The position numbers and the translations under genes are program-made. DNA of 8,897 bases from a virus (lineage: Duplodnaviria > Heunggongvirae > Uroviricota > Caudoviricetes): IMG/VR virus record IMGVR_UViG_2671180852_000010. One strand, written 5' to 3'. The notes beneath the pieces are model-generated. The model saw only the letters and a program-made list of their open reading frames with translations, made no database searches and was not told the origin of the DNA. Position 1 is the first letter of the stretch. Each line of letters opens with the position of its first letter. Positions 256-7,161 of the stretch are shown in pieces.

Positions 256-423
256 ATGACCACTATTACCAAAGAACGTATTGAATTGTTCATTAAAAAC
301 CCGCTTGAAAACGGGCTTACCCGTGGTGAACAAATGGAACTGGCACGGATTGCGCTGGCATCGCTGGAAGCAGAGCCGGTTGTGTTCTGGTTTGAAAAAT
401 ATCAAGAAGGGGCTACGGCATGA
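256..423 (+). CDS. Hypothetical 55-aa protein ([12 protein letters not shown]...), short paralog of the N-terminal half of the next ORF
   Basis: ATG at 256 preceded by AAGGAG (244-249). The stop TGA 421-423 overlaps the next start ATG 420-422 (ATGA). Shares the MTT(I/F)T(K/R)E start, the IAL(A/V)SL(E/A)AEP motif and FEKYQEG versus HEYKPVG with ORF 420-764. It falls below the ORF-track length cutoff. Confidence 0.5.
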
Positions 424-764
424 CGACTTTTACCAGAGAGCAGTTAATAGCTCACGCAGAGGAGACTATTGAAGCACAGAGACTGTGCATACCGGGCACA
501 ATCGACCATGACATCATCCGCACATATAAGATGGATATTGCTGTTCTGGAAATCGCACTGGTATCGCTGGCAGCAGAGCCAGCCGGTAAATTGCATGAAT
601 ACAAACCAGTGGGATATCAGCGTCTGGTCGATGAGTTAACCATGCTGGTAAAGCAGTTAACCTGGCAACTGAGGAAAGCGAAGCCAGACTGCAAATTACC
701 GGATAAGGCGATGAGTTATCTGGAGCGGAACGGACTGATAAGCGTGGAGGATATTTTACGATGA
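420..764 (+). CDS. Hypothetical 114-aa protein ([15 protein letters not shown]...), family not recognised
   Basis: Translationally coupled to both neighbours by ATGA overlaps at 420-423 and 761-764. Paralogous to the preceding 55-aa ORF. An identical copy lies at 5557-5901. Confidence 0.6.
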
Positions 765-844
765 CCTGGCCTGAAGCATTAACAACGGTAGGAATTGCGA
801 TGGCGGTGGCGCTGGTGGTGTATTCGATTTGCCGCTGGGGATAA
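761..844 (+). CDS. 27-aa hydrophobic mini-protein ([27 protein letters not shown]), predicted single transmembrane helix
   Basis: ATG 761 overlaps the upstream stop (ATGA); TAA at 842-844. The hydrophobic core is flanked by W/R residues. It is short enough that the call is tentative. Confidence 0.3.
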
Positions 845-2847: not shown

Positions 2848-3228
2848 ATGACCGAGCGCATAGAATTTGTTTTACCTTACCCGCCGACGGTGAACACTTA
2901 CTGGCGTCGTCGTGGCAGCACATATTTTGTATCAAAAGCCGGGGAGCGTTATCGCCGGGCAGTGGCGCTTATTGTTCGCCAGCAGCGGCTGAAATTAAGC
3001 CTGTCCGGAAGGTTGGCAATAAAAATTATTGCAGAACCACCGGATAAGCGCCGCCGTGACCTGGACAATATTCTGAAAGCGCCGCTGGATGCGCTGACGC
3101 ATGCGGGGTTGCTAATGGACGATGAGCAGTTTGATGAAATCAATATCGTTCGTGCTCAGCCAGTATCTGGTGGACGTCTGGGGGTGAAGATTTATCCCAT
3201 AATGCTTGAAGGGCAGGTCAAAAAATGA
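2848..3228 (+). CDS. rusA: RusA-family Holliday junction resolvase (crossover junction endodeoxyribonuclease), 126 aa
   Basis: PDKRRRDLDNILKAPLDALTHAGLLMDDEQ matches the RusA catalytic-core pattern (K-12 RusA has [30 protein letters not shown]). The stop overlaps the Q start (ATGA at 3225-3228). Confidence 0.85.
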   Translation: MTERIEFVLPYPPTVNTYWRRRGSTYFVSKAGERYRRAVALIVRQQRLKLSLSGRLAIKIIAEPPDKRRRDLDNILKAPLDALTHAGLLMDDEQFDEINIVRAQPVSGGRLGVKIYPIMLEGQVKK

Positions 3229-4286
3229 AACTGGAAGATTTACCGAAATACTACTCCCCAAAATCCCCCGGCCTGACTGATGCATCGGCCTCAACGTCGA
3301 AAGATGCGCTGAGTATCACTGATGTGATGGCCGCGCAGGGCATGACACAGAATCGGGCTGAGATGGGGGTTTCTGCGTTCCTTGGGAAAATGGGCATTAG
3401 TATGAATGACAGAGAGCGGGCAACAGAATTGCTGACAGAATATGCACTCAGTCGGTGTGATCGCGTGGCGGCGTTAAGAAAACTCCCGGCAGAAATAAAA
3501 CCGGCAGTGATGCGTATTATGGCTTCGTATGCGTTTGAAGATTATGCCCGTAGCGCGGCGAGCAAAAAACAGTGCCCCTGCTGTCACGGAAAAAAATTTA
3601 TTGAAAGCGAGGTTTTTACAAACAAGATCCAGTATCCGGATGGTAAGCCGCCGGTATGGGCAAAGTGTACGAAAGGTGTGTATCCGTCTTACTGGGAAGA
3701 ATGGAAAAAAGTCAGGGAGGTGGTAAAAGTTGCCTGTCCGGAGTGTGGCGGAAAGGGTGAGGTTTCCACCGCCTGTAAGGATTGCCGTGGGCGTGGTGTC
3801 GCCATTCATCGTGAAGAGTCGGTAAAACGTGGTATGCCTGTTATCAGAGACTGCCAGCGTTGTGGTGGTCGTGGCTATGAAAGACTACCATCAACGGAGG
3901 CATTTAATGCTATATGCGAGGTGACAAACCAGATAACACGCGCGTCATGGGAAAAAACAGTTAAGAAATTTTATGATGCGCTGGTGACCCGGTTTGATAT
4001 TGAAGAAGCATGGGCTGAGCGGCAGTTAAAAAAGGTAACTAGGTATGAAAATCAACTTTCGATCAGTGAAGGCGCTTCCCGATTATCTCTTCCTGAAGGC
4101 ACTTTAGGACAATGGGTTACCGCCGCAAGAAAAGGGCTCAATACACCAGGCTCCCGCACAGTGGCTGAGCTGGAATCTGAAGTTATGCAACTGCGTAAGG
4201 CTTTAAATGAAGCACGACTTGAGCGAGATATATTAAAAAAAGCAACAGCGTATTTTGCACAGGAGTCGCTGAAAAATACGCGTTAA
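3225..4286 (+). CDS. Chimeric ORF: Q-type late antiterminator (about aa 1-274) joined in frame to the C-terminal part of an IS3-family OrfA (from about aa 275)
   Basis: The N-terminal 270 aa or so are about 95% identical to the partial Q' at 8593-8897 and carry four CxxC pairs. From about nt 4047 the translation (ENQLSISEGASRLSLPEGTLGQWV...ERDILKKATAYFAQESLKNTR) is a typical IS3-family OrfA helix-turn-helix and leucine-zipper C-terminus that lacks its own N-terminus. Confidence 0.7.
   Translation: MKLEDLPKYYSPKSPGLTDASASTSKDALSITDVMAAQGMTQNRAEMGVSAFLGKMGISMNDRERATELLTEYALSRCDRVAALRKLPAEIKPAVMRIMASYAFEDYARSAASKKQCPCCHGKKFIESEVFTNKIQYPDGKPPVWAKCTKGVYPSYWEEWKKVREVVKVACPECGGKGEVSTACKDCRGRGVAIHREESVKRGMPVIRDCQRCGGRGYERLPSTEAFNAICEVTNQITRASWEKTVKKFYDALVTRFDIEEAWAERQLKKVTRYENQLSISEGASRLSLPEGTLGQWVTAARKGLNTPGSRTVAELESEVMQLRKALNEARLERDILKKATAYFAQESLKNTR
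4235..4241 (+). other. Candidate programmed -1 ribosomal frameshift heptamer A AAA AAA (followed by G) for OrfAB fusion synthesis
   Basis: Heptamer in the OrfA zero frame (TTA AAA AAA GCA). The -1 frame is open from here into OrfB (KKSNSVFCTGVAEKYALIEQWRQQFPIEAMCQVFGVSRSGYY...). A 9-bp stem-loop begins 6 nt downstream (4248-4256 pairing with 4273-4281). Confidence 0.5.
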
Positions 4287-4321
4287 TCGAACAATGGCGA
4301 CAACAATTTCCCATTGAAGCG

Positions 4322-5140
4322 ATGTGTCAGGTATTTGGTGTATCCAGGAGCGGTTATTACAACTGGGTACAGCATGAACCCTCAGACAGAAAACAAAGTG
4401 ATGAGCGGCTAAAACTGGAGATTAAGGTGGCACATATCCGCACTCGCGAAACATATGGAACCCGGCGGCTCCAGACGGAGCTGGCAGAGAATGGCATCAT
4501 CGTTGGTCGTGACCGACTGGCACGTCTTCGTAAGGAGCTAAGGCTACGCTGTAAGCAGAAACGCAAGTTCAGAGCGACTACGAACTCGAACCACAATCTG
4601 CCAGTTGCGCCAAATCTGCTGAACCAGACGTTCGCTCCTACAGCACCAAATCAGGTCTGGGTGGCGGACCTGACGTATGTTGCCACACAGGAGGGATGGT
4701 TGTACCTCGCTGGCATCAAAGATGTTTATACGTGCGAAATTGTCGGCTACGCCATGGGAGAGCGCATGACAAAAGAGCTGACAGGTAAAGCCCTGTTTAT
4801 GGCGCTCAGGAGCCAGCGCCCACCTGCCGGGCTAATCCACCACTCTGATCGAGGTTCACAGTACTGCGCATACGATTACCGGGTCATACAGGAGCAGTCT
4901 GGTCTGAAAACATCAATGTCGCGTAAAGGTAACTGTTACGACAACGCTCCGATGGAAAGCTTCTGGGGAACGCTGAAAAATGAGAGCCTGAGCCACTATC
5001 GTTTTAATAACCGGGATGAAGCCATCTCAGTAATACGGGAATACATTGAGATTTTCTACAATCGTCAGCGTCGTCACTCTCGTCTGGGGAATATCTCCCC
5101 GGCAGCCTTCAGGGAAAAATATCATCAGATGGCTGCTTAA
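4322..5140 (+). CDS. IS3-family transposase OrfB (DDE / rve integrase core); the coordinates are the standalone ORF, which in vivo is probably made as an OrfAB frameshift product
   Basis: Conserved IS3-family OrfB features: VWVADLTYV, HSDRGSQY, a KGNCYDNAPMESFWGTLK segment containing the catalytic E, and a C-terminal YNRQRRHSRLGNISP. It is in the -1 frame relative to OrfA. Confidence 0.85.
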   Translation: MCQVFGVSRSGYYNWVQHEPSDRKQSDERLKLEIKVAHIRTRETYGTRRLQTELAENGIIVGRDRLARLRKELRLRCKQKRKFRATTNSNHNLPVAPNLLNQTFAPTAPNQVWVADLTYVATQEGWLYLAGIKDVYTCEIVGYAMGERMTKELTGKALFMALRSQRPPAGLIHHSDRGSQYCAYDYRVIQEQSGLKTSMSRKGNCYDNAPMESFWGTLKNESLSHYRFNNRDEAISVIREYIEIFYNRQRRHSRLGNISPAAFREKYHQMAA

Positions 5141-5183
5141 AAAAAGAACAAATGGTAGTGTCCGCTATTGCCAGTACACCTCA

Positions 5184-5382
5184 TCCATCACCGAAAAAAA
5201 TTGGCTTTTACACCATTGGCGATAAAAGCATTTACCTGTATGACCTACGCCGCATGGATGAAATCATGGAGGCTCTTGATAATCGTTCGTCGATGGATTG
5301 GTGTGTTGCTGTTCATGATATGAATGCAGGGTTTGATGAAAAGATTTTGTTCCCCTCATCAGTTGAAAGCACTGCGGGTTAA
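5184..5382 (+). pseudogene. Second copy of the 3' fragment of the IS-interrupted gene (identical to 47-245)
   Basis: Identical sequence directly downstream of the IS right end. Confidence 0.3.
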
Positions 5383-5392
5383 GGAGTAACAC

Positions 5393-5560
5393 ATGACCAC
5401 TATTACCAAAGAACGTATTGAATTGTTCATTAAAAACCCGCTTGAAAACGGGCTTACCCGTGGTGAACAAATGGAACTGGCACGGATTGCGCTGGCATCG
5501 CTGGAAGCAGAGCCGGTTGTGTTCTGGTTTGAAAAATATCAAGAAGGGGCTACGGCATGA
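5393..5560 (+). CDS. Hypothetical 55-aa protein, identical copy of 256-423
   Basis: Identical sequence, with AAGGAG upstream and an ATGA overlap with the next gene. Confidence 0.5.
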
Positions 5561-5901
5561 CGACTTTTACCAGAGAGCAGTTAATAGCTCACGCAGAGGA
5601 GACTATTGAAGCACAGAGACTGTGCATACCGGGCACAATCGACCATGACATCATCCGCACATATAAGATGGATATTGCTGTTCTGGAAATCGCACTGGTA
5701 TCGCTGGCAGCAGAGCCAGCCGGTAAATTGCATGAATACAAACCAGTGGGATATCAGCGTCTGGTCGATGAGTTAACCATGCTGGTAAAGCAGTTAACCT
5801 GGCAACTGAGGAAAGCGAAGCCAGACTGCAAATTACCGGATAAGGCGATGAGTTATCTGGAGCGGAACGGACTGATAAGCGTGGAGGATATTTTACGATG
5901 A
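5557..5901 (+). CDS. Hypothetical 114-aa protein, identical copy of 420-764
   Basis: Identical translation in the ORF track. Confidence 0.6.
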
Positions 5902-5981
5902 CCTGGCCTGAAGCATTAACAACGGTAGGAATTGCGATGGCGGTGGCGCTGGTGGTGTATTCGATTTGCCGCTGGGGATAA
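5898..5981 (+). CDS. 27-aa hydrophobic mini-protein, identical copy of 761-844
   Basis: Identical sequence, with an ATGA overlap with the upstream gene. Confidence 0.3.
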
Positions 5982-6192
5982 AAACGGTTTGCGGGAAAAG
6001 GAGAGTTAAGTAGAATTGCAGCGGGTGCTTGAGGCTATCTGTCTCAGGCATGAACACCAAAAGGCAGATAGAGAAAAGCCCCAGTTAACATTACGCGTCC
6101 GGCAAGACGCTTAACATTAATCTGAGGCTCAATCTATGAACGGCAAATCTAGGTTAGCCTCTTACGTGCCGAAAGGCAAGGAGAAGCAGGCT

Positions 6193-6348
6193 ATGAAGCA
6201 GCAAAAGGCGATGTTAATCGCCCTGATCGTCATCTGTTTAACCGTCATAGTGACGGCACTGGTAACGAGGAAAGACCTCTGCGAGGTACGAATTCGAACC
6301 GGCCAGACGGAGGTCGCTGTCTTCACAGCTTACGAACCTGAGGAGTAA
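6193..6348 (+). CDS. hokD: Hok/Gef-family type I toxin, identical second copy
   Basis: Identical to 1056-1211. Confidence 0.85.
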   Translation: MKQQKAMLIALIVICLTVIVTALVTRKDLCEVRIRTGQTEVAVFTAYEPEE

Positions 6349-6418
6349 GAGACCCGGCGAGGGAGAAATCCCTCGCCACCTCTGATGTGGCAGGCATTCT
6401 CAACGCACCCGCACTTAA

Positions 6419-6564: not shown

Positions 6565-6816
6565 ATGATGAACATCGAAGAACTGCGTAAAATTTTTTGT
6601 GAAGATGGCCTCTATGCTGTGTGCGTTGAAAATGGAAATATTGTTAGTCATTACCGCATTGTGTGTTTGCAAAAAAATGGGGCTGCGTTAATTAATTTTG
6701 TGGATGCCCGAGTGACGGACGGATTTATCTTGCGCGACGGTGAGTTTGTCACTTCATTACAGGTATTGAAAGAGATCGGAATAAAAGCTGGCTTTTCTGC
6801 TTTTTCAGAAGAATAA
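6565..6816 (+). CDS. rem: Rem-like small prophage protein, 83 aa, intact
   Basis: Its length and its position between hokD and ydfU fit E. coli Qin rem. GGAAGG lies upstream of tandem ATG ATG. Assigned by context and recollection, not by search. Confidence 0.55.
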   Translation: MMNIEELRKIFCEDGLYAVCVENGNIVSHYRIVCLQKNGAALINFVDARVTDGFILRDGEFVTSLQVLKEIGIKAGFSAFSEE

Positions 6817-6882: not shown

Positions 6883-7161
6883 ATGGCACGCAACGCAAAA
6901 TATTACAAACATGATAATTCGACCGTTCTTGCCCACACGCACGAGCGGTATTCTCACGCATTTAAGTCAGACTGGTACCAGCATCCCCCATGCACTGAAG
7001 AACAGGCCGAATGGCTCATTCAGTGTTACCGCAGGCGCGGATGCGAGGTTAAAAAAGCCCTTAGCCTCGACTACCGTCACTGGATAATCTCCGTCAGGCT
7101 TCCTTACTCTGAACGCCCACCGCGTCCGTCCCGCACATTCCAGCAACGCATCTGGAGGTAA
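6883..7161 (+). CDS. Hypothetical 92-aa protein (MARNAKYYKHDNST...), family not recognised
   Basis: GGAG lies upstream of the ATG. The stop TAA 7159-7161 directly abuts the ydfU' GTG start. Most differences from the module-1 homologous segment are synonymous in this frame (aag/aaa, tca/tct, gac/gat, ctt/ctc, tct/tcc, cgc/cgg), which supports it as a real coding frame. Confidence 0.6.
   Translation: MARNAKYYKHDNSTVLAHTHERYSHAFKSDWYQHPPCTEEQAEWLIQCYRRRGCEVKKALSLDYRHWIISVRLPYSERPPRPSRTFQQRIWR

Follow-up and report, generated by a model that had tools for sequence, protein, structure and literature searches.

What is the role of three short, overlapping open reading frames (ORFs) that lie immediately upstream of a hok toxin gene in a lambdoid prophage? 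The question is raised by an 8,897-nucleotide (nt) stretch of Caudoviricetes DNA, IMG/VR record IMGVR_UViG_2671180852_000010, which was analysed as a whole and is referred to here as the window. ORFs encoding proteins of 55, 114 and 27 amino acids (aa) form a cassette in front of hok, and a reading of the sequence alone (the original prediction) had proposed that they constitute a toxin–antitoxin, phage-exclusion or anti-defence module. Our data favour another answer. The cassette is probably the distal end of an early accessory ('ea') array of lambdoid phages, of the kind known from P22 and Shiga toxin (Stx) phages, which was built by recombination among mobile modules and is not a purpose-built three-gene system. 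The three ORFs are separately mobile pieces.

Organization and duplication of the cassette

The three ORFs lie on the plus strand at 256-423 (55 aa), 420-764 (114 aa) and 761-844 (27 aa, hereafter the mini-ORF). As had been described, they are chained by ATGA start/stop overlaps, with the junction sequences GGCATGACG at 420 and ACGATGACC at 761. Shine-Dalgarno-like sequences are found within the preceding gene in each case (AAGGAG before 256, GAAGGGG before 420 and GGAGGA before 761). Positions 1-1217 of the window are the same, base for base, as 5138-6354, and the reported duplication of the whole cassette with 100% identity at 5393-5981 was thereby confirmed. In the second copy the ORFs occupy 5393-5560, 5557-5901 and 5898-5981, and all three are intact in both copies.

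The N-termini of the 55-aa and 114-aa proteins are 33% identical over 54 residues (BLASTP, E=1e-5). The MTT(I/F)T(K/R)E start and the IAL(A/V)SL(E/A)AEP motif, which had been noticed earlier, are common to both, and the DNA encoding the latter is equal at 25 of 29 bases between the two genes. The best homologs had E values of 1.5e-69 for the 114-aa protein and 4.5e-27 for the 55-aa protein. Because these homologs are strong and the mini-ORF keeps its frame and length in diverged phages, the three ORFs are more than chance reading frames. The suggestion that the 55-aa protein is a truncated paralog of the 114-aa protein holds in part: the N-terminal likeness is clear, but what the two proteins share is a mobile N-terminal module carried by many lambdoid accessory proteins.

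Origin of the 55-aa ORF

Sequence comparison shows that the 55-aa ORF is a chimera in which an EaA-type N-terminal module (N-module) is fused to the last 14 codons of an HNH endonuclease gene, because its nt 1-120 match eaA while its tail from position 365 matches the end of the HNH gene of Stx phage ArgO145. Residues 1-~41 correspond to the EaA-type helical-hairpin module with its MTTITKER start, and matching proteins carry the names Eaa, DUF551 or DUF550. Over nt 1-120, the identity is 93% with the beginning of P22 eaA and about 91% with HK620 hkaE, which encodes a DUF551 protein. Residues ~42-55 correspond to the HNH tail. Positions 365-845 of the window are 98.5% identical to ArgO145, with the similarity starting inside the SLEAEP codons. 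ArgO145 gp11 is an intact 121-aa HNH endonuclease whose C-terminal end is identical to the 55-aa tail, and its gene overlaps the 114-aa gene through ATGA. A PHROG scan of the 55-aa protein gave phrog_3323 (E=1e-19), and residues 31-54 matched the C-terminus of phrog_2118 (HNH). The gp11 gene lies at 3194-3559 of locus L003 and is free-standing, directly upstream of the 114-aa gene in Stx phages.

The position before the 114-aa gene is occupied by different genes in related prophages. Among 75 scored IMG/VR loci, which were anchored on the end of the 114-aa gene with an exact 19-mer and are close relatives whose counts are not independent events, this gene was the 55-aa ORF in 51, the 121-aa HNH gene in 21 and a 61-aa variant with a different N-module in 3. 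These upstream genes share just their last 14 codons. The 14-codon tail and the ribosome-binding region are part of the module of the 114-aa gene, with the body of the upstream gene being interchangeable. The idea that the 55-aa and 114-aa proteins are fixed partners was not supported by this distribution. The genes of a type II toxin–antitoxin system travel as a conserved pair, whereas the HNH gene in 21 and the 61-aa variant in 3 of the 75 loci take the place of the 55-aa ORF.

Modules of the 114-aa protein and the recombination joint

The 114-aa protein consists of an N-module (residues 1-55, a helical hairpin), a linker and a C-terminal module (C-module, residues ~65-114). In the PHROG family scan it matched phrog_660 (E=8e-43). 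Partial matches to phrog_60, 924 and 5117 were also obtained in the scan of the two larger proteins, and the PHROG matches cover parts of longer profiles. Its homologs match residues 1-55 or ~68-114, often at 80-100% identity, within proteins of 50-390 aa. The C-module has a length of roughly 47 residues and a consensus that starts with ELTMLVKQL, and hundreds of proteins that otherwise differ end with it. It stands at the extreme C-terminus in nearly all matches listed, out of 291 clusters at 50% identity, and is attached to DUF551 domains, to Ead_Ea22 coiled coils (12 of 135 representatives), to an HNH fragment or to nothing recognisable. It is also found in Sodalis, Erwinia, Kluyvera, Phytobacter, Intestinirhabdus and Pantoea. 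At least seven N-module variants occur on the same C-half of the 114-aa protein, and all of them begin with M(T/A)xxT(K/R)E and end with IALASL(E/A)AEP. The 114-aa protein can be described as a domain-less member of a super-mosaic family, which has the two-helix N-hairpin and the C-module with no central domain between them.

An AlphaFold2 (AF2) model of the 114-aa protein had a mean predicted local distance difference test score (pLDDT) of 78.7 and a predicted TM-score (pTM) of 0.43, with helices at residues 6-26, 30-51, 65-87, 95-103 and 109-113. The two-helix hairpin of the N-module was modelled with a pLDDT of 88-95, the linker was predicted to be flexible, and the C-module to contain one long and two short helices (pLDDT 66-83). 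A Foldseek search of this model against PDB and BFVD returned no match at E<=0.001, just generic helical hairpins, and a PDB sequence search with the 114-aa protein, the 55-aa protein and the C-module profile gave nothing below E=0.09.

The end of the N-module is a conserved joint. Its first copy, the boundary of N-module recombination, lies within the 55-aa ORF at 349-377 (plus strand; repeated at 5486-5514), and the homology to ArgO145 starts inside it at 365. The second copy lies inside the 114-aa gene at 552-581 (plus strand; repeated at 5689-5718). The natural recombinant P0031 (101 aa) joins here: its N-module is that of the 55-aa ORF and, from the motif onward, it continues as the C-half of the 114-aa protein, exactly as a recombination event between the two repeats of the window cassette would be expected to produce. 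In a related prophage the coding stretch of the joint is found three times within about 1 kb, and in L001 two copies lie within about 700 bp. Fusions of the 55-aa with the 114-aa protein, of the 114-aa with the 27-aa protein and of an N-module with the mini-ORF tail exist as well (P0001/2, P0011, P0029, P0156 and P0234 are among the recombinants and fusions). The joint marks a site of N-module exchange among dozens of accessory proteins and provides a clean, datable case of intragenic mosaicism.

A mobile mosaic unit can be delimited at 365-844 on the plus strand (second copy 5502-5981). Three elements make it up: the 14-codon tail together with the ribosome-binding region, the 114-aa gene, and the mini-ORF, whose stop codon forms the right edge of the unit. 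The homology to PhiR49_2 also stops at 844. These boundaries show that 365-844 is the unit that is transferred. An HNH endonuclease gene is found upstream of the 114-aa gene in about a quarter of the sampled loci and, if its product is a nuclease of the homing type, part of the explanation for the mobility of the unit and for its sharply defined ends could lie there.

The C-module is not always followed by the mini-ORF. This arrangement was considered as a rule and rejected, since other genes follow the C-module in Kluyvera, Erwinia, Phytobacter, Intestinirhabdus and Sodalis. In more distant genomes (L100 at 1271-1310 and L101 at 2635-2670) the stop codon of the C-module is overlapped via ATGA by another N-module gene (MSTFT... 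and MTTITREQ...), and therefore arrays can hold head-to-tail runs of N-module/C-module genes. Two short contigs labelled as a Segatella copri metagenome-assembled genome (L094 and L100) carry E. coli-type prophage sequence, and one of them has the 114-aa gene at 100% identity together with a frameshifted mini-ORF. The presence of such a prophage in a Segatella copri bin is almost certainly due to mis-binning.

Conservation of the 27-aa mini-ORF

The third ORF encodes a single hydrophobic helix, as had been expected. Its product has one hydrophobic stretch at residues 6-24 (best 19-residue Kyte-Doolittle mean 2.16) and a grand average of hydropathy (GRAVY) of 1.13, and the Shine-Dalgarno sequence GGAGGA is located 9 nt upstream of the ORF. 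Homologs were found by tblastn in 91 phage records at 55-96% aa identity, including 933W, VT2-Sakai, VT1-Sakai, BP-4795 and Min27, with 63-96% for a set that contains 933W, VT2-Sakai and BP-4795, and the ORF is also present in 483 IMG/VR loci. In seven diverged copies the length is always 27 codons, residues M1, W3, P4, A6, V10, G11, R25 and W26 do not vary and the core remains hydrophobic; a hydrophobic character is retained by all homologs. Length and frame are also unchanged in 933W, BP-4795, TH18, WGPS2, ArgO145 and PhiR49_2, where the mini-ORF stands behind different genes. When the end of the C-module was used as the anchor, all 118 informative loci carried the mini-ORF; about 109 copies were intact (~92%) and 8 were frameshifted or stopped. 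Selection is hard to measure on 27 codons; the pairwise ratio of nonsynonymous to synonymous substitution rates (dN/dS) ranged from 0.09 to 0.75, and the synonymous excess was significant against the most distant copy, TH18 (p about 4e-5 to 2e-4), and weak otherwise.

The ATG of the mini-ORF always overlaps the stop codon of the preceding gene, and the preceding gene varies. It may encode a C-module protein (...EDILR*), a DUF551 protein (...PPQEVNQ*) or an Ea22-like protein (...IEQEVNR*). In the DUF551 case, the last codons of the gene supply GGAGGTGAA as the Shine-Dalgarno sequence of the mini-ORF. At ~1485-1504 of L005-L008, the C-terminal ...PPQEVNQ of the DUF551 protein is encoded by CAGGAGGTGAATCAATGA, which doubles as the Shine-Dalgarno sequence and start of the mini-ORF, and the conservation of PPQEVNQ may be partly due to the ribosome-binding site of the downstream gene. 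Homology to ArgO145 and PhiR49_2 stops at 844/845, at the stop codon of the mini-ORF, and the three contexts have three different sequences beyond this point. The mini-ORF is a conserved coding sequence, and its start always lies on the stop codon of whichever gene closes the array.

Codon 3 (TGG, W3) is invariant in the diverged intact copies, yet it is altered repeatedly in copies that are otherwise well kept. Two unrelated variants have TAG here, and others have CGG or GGG (POCJ13, L009 1501-1590; phiSTEC1589, L010 1501-1590; IMG/VR loci L105-L224). This recurrent change could be due to chance or to selection against the product.

RefSeq/PGAP annotation leaves out the mini-ORF, so that functional screens of the accessory genes of Stx phages are likely to have missed it. 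By exact look-up, a few submitters do annotate it, under the names 'prophage protein' or 'hypothetical protein'. No mention of the peptide was found in the literature when the peptide string, the RefSeq accession and the supplements of a ribosome profiling (Ribo-seq) paper on Sakai small genes were searched. In a protein collection clustered at 90% identity, the 27-aa peptides were grouped with DUF551 proteins of 121-185 aa; the apparent bridges in these clusters are incomplete or frameshifted entries (GGESMTWPEAF... is one), with the effect that a survey based on such clusters would overlook the peptide. In Pfam and NCBIfam the peptide had weak profile matches only, far below the cut-off (KdpF, E=0.12; DUF883_C, E=0.029). 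The omission is of modest wider interest, as a gene for a 27-residue membrane peptide stands at the end of the array in the medically important Stx phages 933W, VT2-Sakai, BP-4795 and Min27.

Prophage setting, IS600 and hok

The gene content of the window is that of a Qin/Rac-like lambdoid prophage region. The order of genes is a phrog_1714 gene, the cassette, sok/hok, a phrog_340 gene, DUF968, RusA, antiterminator Q and IS600, which is followed by a second run of genes 86-98% similar to the first. In intact relatives, the replication genes come first, followed by a series of 'ead/Ea22-like' and hypothetical genes and then by the cassette, with a single strand carrying them all. No promoter-like or terminator-like site was found inside the cassette, and the sole terminator-like hairpin within 1-1500 lies after hok at 1280-1297 on the plus strand. 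The ATGA overlap also occurs at the RusA/Q junction of the window (3225), and a related prophage has ATGA at 4 further annotated junctions and a GTGA overlap at 1 more. Such overlaps are generic in the operon and are therefore no mark of a dedicated complex, contrary to the earlier interpretation of the coupling.

In the window itself, both copies of the cassette are cut off from their usual upstream operon by the insertion sequence IS600. The right end of one IS600 copy, which lies mostly outside the window, occupies 1-47 on the plus strand. It is identical to 5138-5184 and abuts a truncated phrog_1714 gene, and homology to intact prophages begins at position 48. A second, 5'-truncated IS600 lies between the two modules at 4046-5184 (plus strand; 98-99% identity to annotated IS600) and is fused in frame to the Q antiterminator ORF at 3225-4286, whose tail contains HTH_Tnp_1 (Pfam). 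The truncated phrog_1714 gene is a 76-aa ORF at 15-245 on the plus strand (phrog_1714, E=5e-37; second copy 5152-5382). It is intact in the related prophage L001, with 87 aa and a coding sequence at 8935-9198, and here its 5' part is replaced by the IS600 end. The two IS600 ends (47/48 and 5184/5185) interrupt the phrog_1714 gene at one and the same point, ~200 bp upstream of each cassette copy, and therefore the normal, operon-type expression of the cassette has probably been lost in this genome. The IS600/prophage junction of the window was not found in complete E. coli genomes, which makes Shigella a possible source.

The block of 100% identity extends from the IS600 end to 6 nt beyond the hok stop codon, and past that point the similarity between the modules falls to 86-98%. 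Such a pattern points to a recent duplication linked to IS600, or to gene conversion, between two distinct prophage modules. Module 1 (1429-1713) is without ~260 bp that are present in module 2 (6565-6816 and 6883-7161). A 94-aa ORF results, in which ~30 codons from the start of the phrog_340 gene run into part of the rem-like gene in another frame, and the deletion is a sign of decay in module 1.

The cassette is located directly upstream of a Hok toxin gene, as had been reported. The sok/hok regulatory region, which is outside the mobile unit, lies at 886-1061 on the plus strand (Rfam RF01794 sok, 112 bits; second copy 6023-6198), and the mok/hok reading frame at 999-1211, also on the plus strand, with hok proper at 1056-1211 (Pfam HOK_GEF, 3e-23; second copy 6136-6348). 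The hok reading frame is annotated hokD in related genomes. Our survey of neighbourhoods upheld the association with hok and removed any obligation from it: hok follows the mini-ORF in 79 of 113 sampled loci (~70%) and in 933W, and the other right-hand neighbours represent at least three contexts, among them DUF4222-xis-int (BP-4795, WGPS2 and PhiR49_2) and an inverted toxin/antitoxin pair (ArgO145). The hok-containing segment of the window had 18,928 matches in E. coli genomes, and the whole segment was present in just 242 records. Because of this difference, the adjacency of cassette and hok is a common mosaic arrangement and not a requirement. The possibility that the mini-ORF belongs to the hok locus was rejected on the same counts and because ~30% of the sampled loci are without hok.

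Possible functions of the cassette

No family of known function was found for the three proteins, in agreement with the original prediction. When the three ORFs and the neighbouring ORFs were scanned with Pfam, NCBIfam and PADLOC, nothing was obtained for the cassette, as was the case for the PDB sequence and Foldseek searches, and PADLOC-DB v2 defence models had no match among 7 neighbouring ORFs. The 55-aa and 114-aa proteins had no Pfam match of any kind at E<=1, and so none to DUF550, to DUF551 or to Ead_Ea22 (PF13935), to which the link is indirect, via the C-module (12/135). Type II toxin–antitoxin domains of the RelBE-like kind were absent by Pfam, NCBIfam and PADLOC profiles. For the mini-ORF, type I toxin traits were not detected: there was no HOK_GEF match, Rfam finds just the neighbouring sok, and there is no promoter-like site. 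No homologs of the three ORFs were found in the Rac and Qin prophages of K-12. The 114-aa and 55-aa proteins fall in PHROG families 660 and 3323, respectively, which are phage proteins of unknown function, and in some phage records the name is 'EaA protein'.

The proposal of a dedicated co-translated three-gene module for toxin–antitoxin, phage-exclusion or anti-defence functions, working with hok or replacing a hok/relBE-type slot, is the least probable of the explanations that we considered. It would fit the tight gene overlaps, the membrane peptide and the uncharacterised products, as well as the presence of hok in 79/113 sampled loci and in 933W and the use of the slot that relBE has in K-12 Qin. 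However, no toxin, antitoxin or defence signature appeared in the profile scans (Pfam, NCBIfam and PADLOC), the ATGA overlaps are generic in the operon, and an HNH endonuclease replaces the 55-aa ORF in 21/75 scored loci. The 114-aa gene and the mini-ORF occur without hok beside xis/int, DUF4222 or an inverted toxin/antitoxin pair, and the mini-ORF also follows DUF551 and Ea22-like genes. When the naturally occurring 55+114 fusion P0001 was modelled with AF2 in place of a 55:114 complex, the result was of low confidence, with no confident joint fold (pLDDT 51, pTM 0.39).

Two further explanations were considered. The mini-ORF could encode a membrane-damaging, type I-like toxin such as Hok, TisB or Ibs, to which the upstream genes merely deliver ribosomes. 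Its very short length, one hydrophobic helix, high GRAVY and position next to hok agree with this, and W3 is recurrently changed to stop, R or G and about 7% of copies carry frameshifts, a pattern that selection against a harmful product could explain. Such a toxin is nonetheless improbable here, as the mini-ORF has no promoter of its own, no antisense RNA or Rfam match except the sok element of hok, and no match to HOK_GEF or another toxin in Pfam. Type I toxins are under tight translational repression, and coupling to an upstream gene with a strong Shine-Dalgarno sequence is the opposite of this. The mini-ORF is also intact in about 92% of sampled prophage copies, and upstream genes are truncated at a similar rate, which fits neutral decay. 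A somewhat different case can be made that the window ORFs are decaying, functionless remnants and that the 27-aa ORF is not a gene. IS600 breaks the operon 200 bp upstream of both copies, module 1 has further deletions, the 55-aa ORF is chimeric, truncated and fused variants are numerous in databases, and the mini-ORF is absent from RefSeq annotation. This too seems unlikely, because none of the three ORFs is disrupted in either copy, functional Stx phages conserve the 114-aa protein, and the mini-ORF keeps its frame, length, Shine-Dalgarno sequence and eight invariant residues at 63-78% identity, with synonymous excess. Mosaic boundaries, moreover, lie exactly at the stop codon of the mini-ORF.

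An accessory array assembled from mobile modules is therefore our preferred explanation, and a working model can be proposed for it. In an intact phage, the array would be transcribed by read-through from an early promoter, without a promoter or terminator of its own, and the cassette would be translated by stop/start coupling like the rest of the array. Lacking a catalytic domain, the 114-aa protein would have to work through binding, possibly as an oligomerising adaptor; its hairpin is a plausible oligomerisation or target-binding element, and the C-module would be a shared interaction element. The 27-aa product is predicted to insert into the inner membrane as a single helix and to modulate membrane function. 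The 55-aa product is most likely a recombination by-product, or at most would compete for N-module interactions. If Ea22 and the other exo-xis genes are taken as a guide, the cassette might serve, early and dispensably, to modulate host physiology or the balance between lysis and lysogeny, which is the weakest part of the model and a suggestion that we make tentatively (PMC7093339, PMC10834534).

Several observations weigh against this explanation. Purifying selection on the mini-ORF is significant just in the comparisons that contain TH18. With 51 loci the 55-aa form is common, and its tail recurs behind another N-module variant; the ORF may thus be maintained and not be a mere scar. Structure and profile searches constrain the function of none of the three products. 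The 114-aa gene and the mini-ORF always occur together in 365-844, and hok is present in 70% of loci, so that a functional link is possible. A more specific form of such a link is that the 480 bp of 365-844 are a mobile two-gene effector, in which a soluble adaptor and a coupled 27-aa membrane peptide would exert their effect at the inner membrane, superinfection exclusion and a toxin/modulator pair being two examples. The variable N-hairpin, which is bracketed by the conserved MTTxTKE start and the joint, would then be a swappable specificity determinant under an arms race. The conserved VENN motif, which permits the exchange of toxin domains in contact-dependent inhibition (CDI), offers an analogy for this swapping. 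We consider a two-gene effector of this kind to be improbable.

An array assembled from mobile modules also has consequences for annotation. The cassette should not be catalogued as a new toxin–antitoxin or defence system, and the apparent 'paralog pair' and the tight coupling are understood as by-products of the construction of lambdoid accessory arrays.

Comparison with known systems

The closest named relatives are EaA of P22, HkaE of HK620 and the 'Eaa' proteins of prophages in Salmonella and E. coli. The first 40 codons of the 55-aa ORF are 90-93% identical at the DNA level to the start of eaA/hkaE, and these proteins, like the cassette, have the N-module, belong to early non-essential accessory arrays and have no known function. 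They differ in having a DUF550/DUF551 domain, which is not present in the window proteins; the 55-aa protein has a foreign 14-residue tail instead, and the 114-aa protein carries just the C-module. Ea22 and the Ead_Ea22 family (PF13935, exo-xis region) are likewise mosaic, helix-rich early accessory proteins of the same arrays, and 12 of 135 C-module proteins contain PF13935, although the 114-aa and 55-aa proteins do not match it. C-terminal parts of Ea22 are swapped between phages, the ea22 genes of Stx phages are mosaic, DUF551 is a portable domain, and Ea22 is pro-lysogenic (PMC10834534, PMC7093339); the pro-lysogenic effect is described in PMC7093339.

The position of relBE directly upstream of hokD in Qin of E. 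coli K-12, which the original prediction had invoked, was confirmed. The slot is the same, being followed by hokD and then by rem, DUF968 (ydfU) and Q. However, the cassette has no sequence, profile or architectural similarity to RelB/RelE, and sok/mok are intact in the window. The mini-ORF resembles the small membrane proteins Hok, TisB and Ibs, as well as KdpF, CydX and AcrZ, in its size of ~27 aa, its single hydrophobic helix and its very short termini, whereas it has no significant sequence match to any of them, and no antisense RNA or promoter of its own was found. Unlike these proteins, its product is encoded at the end of a phage accessory array, to which it is translationally coupled.

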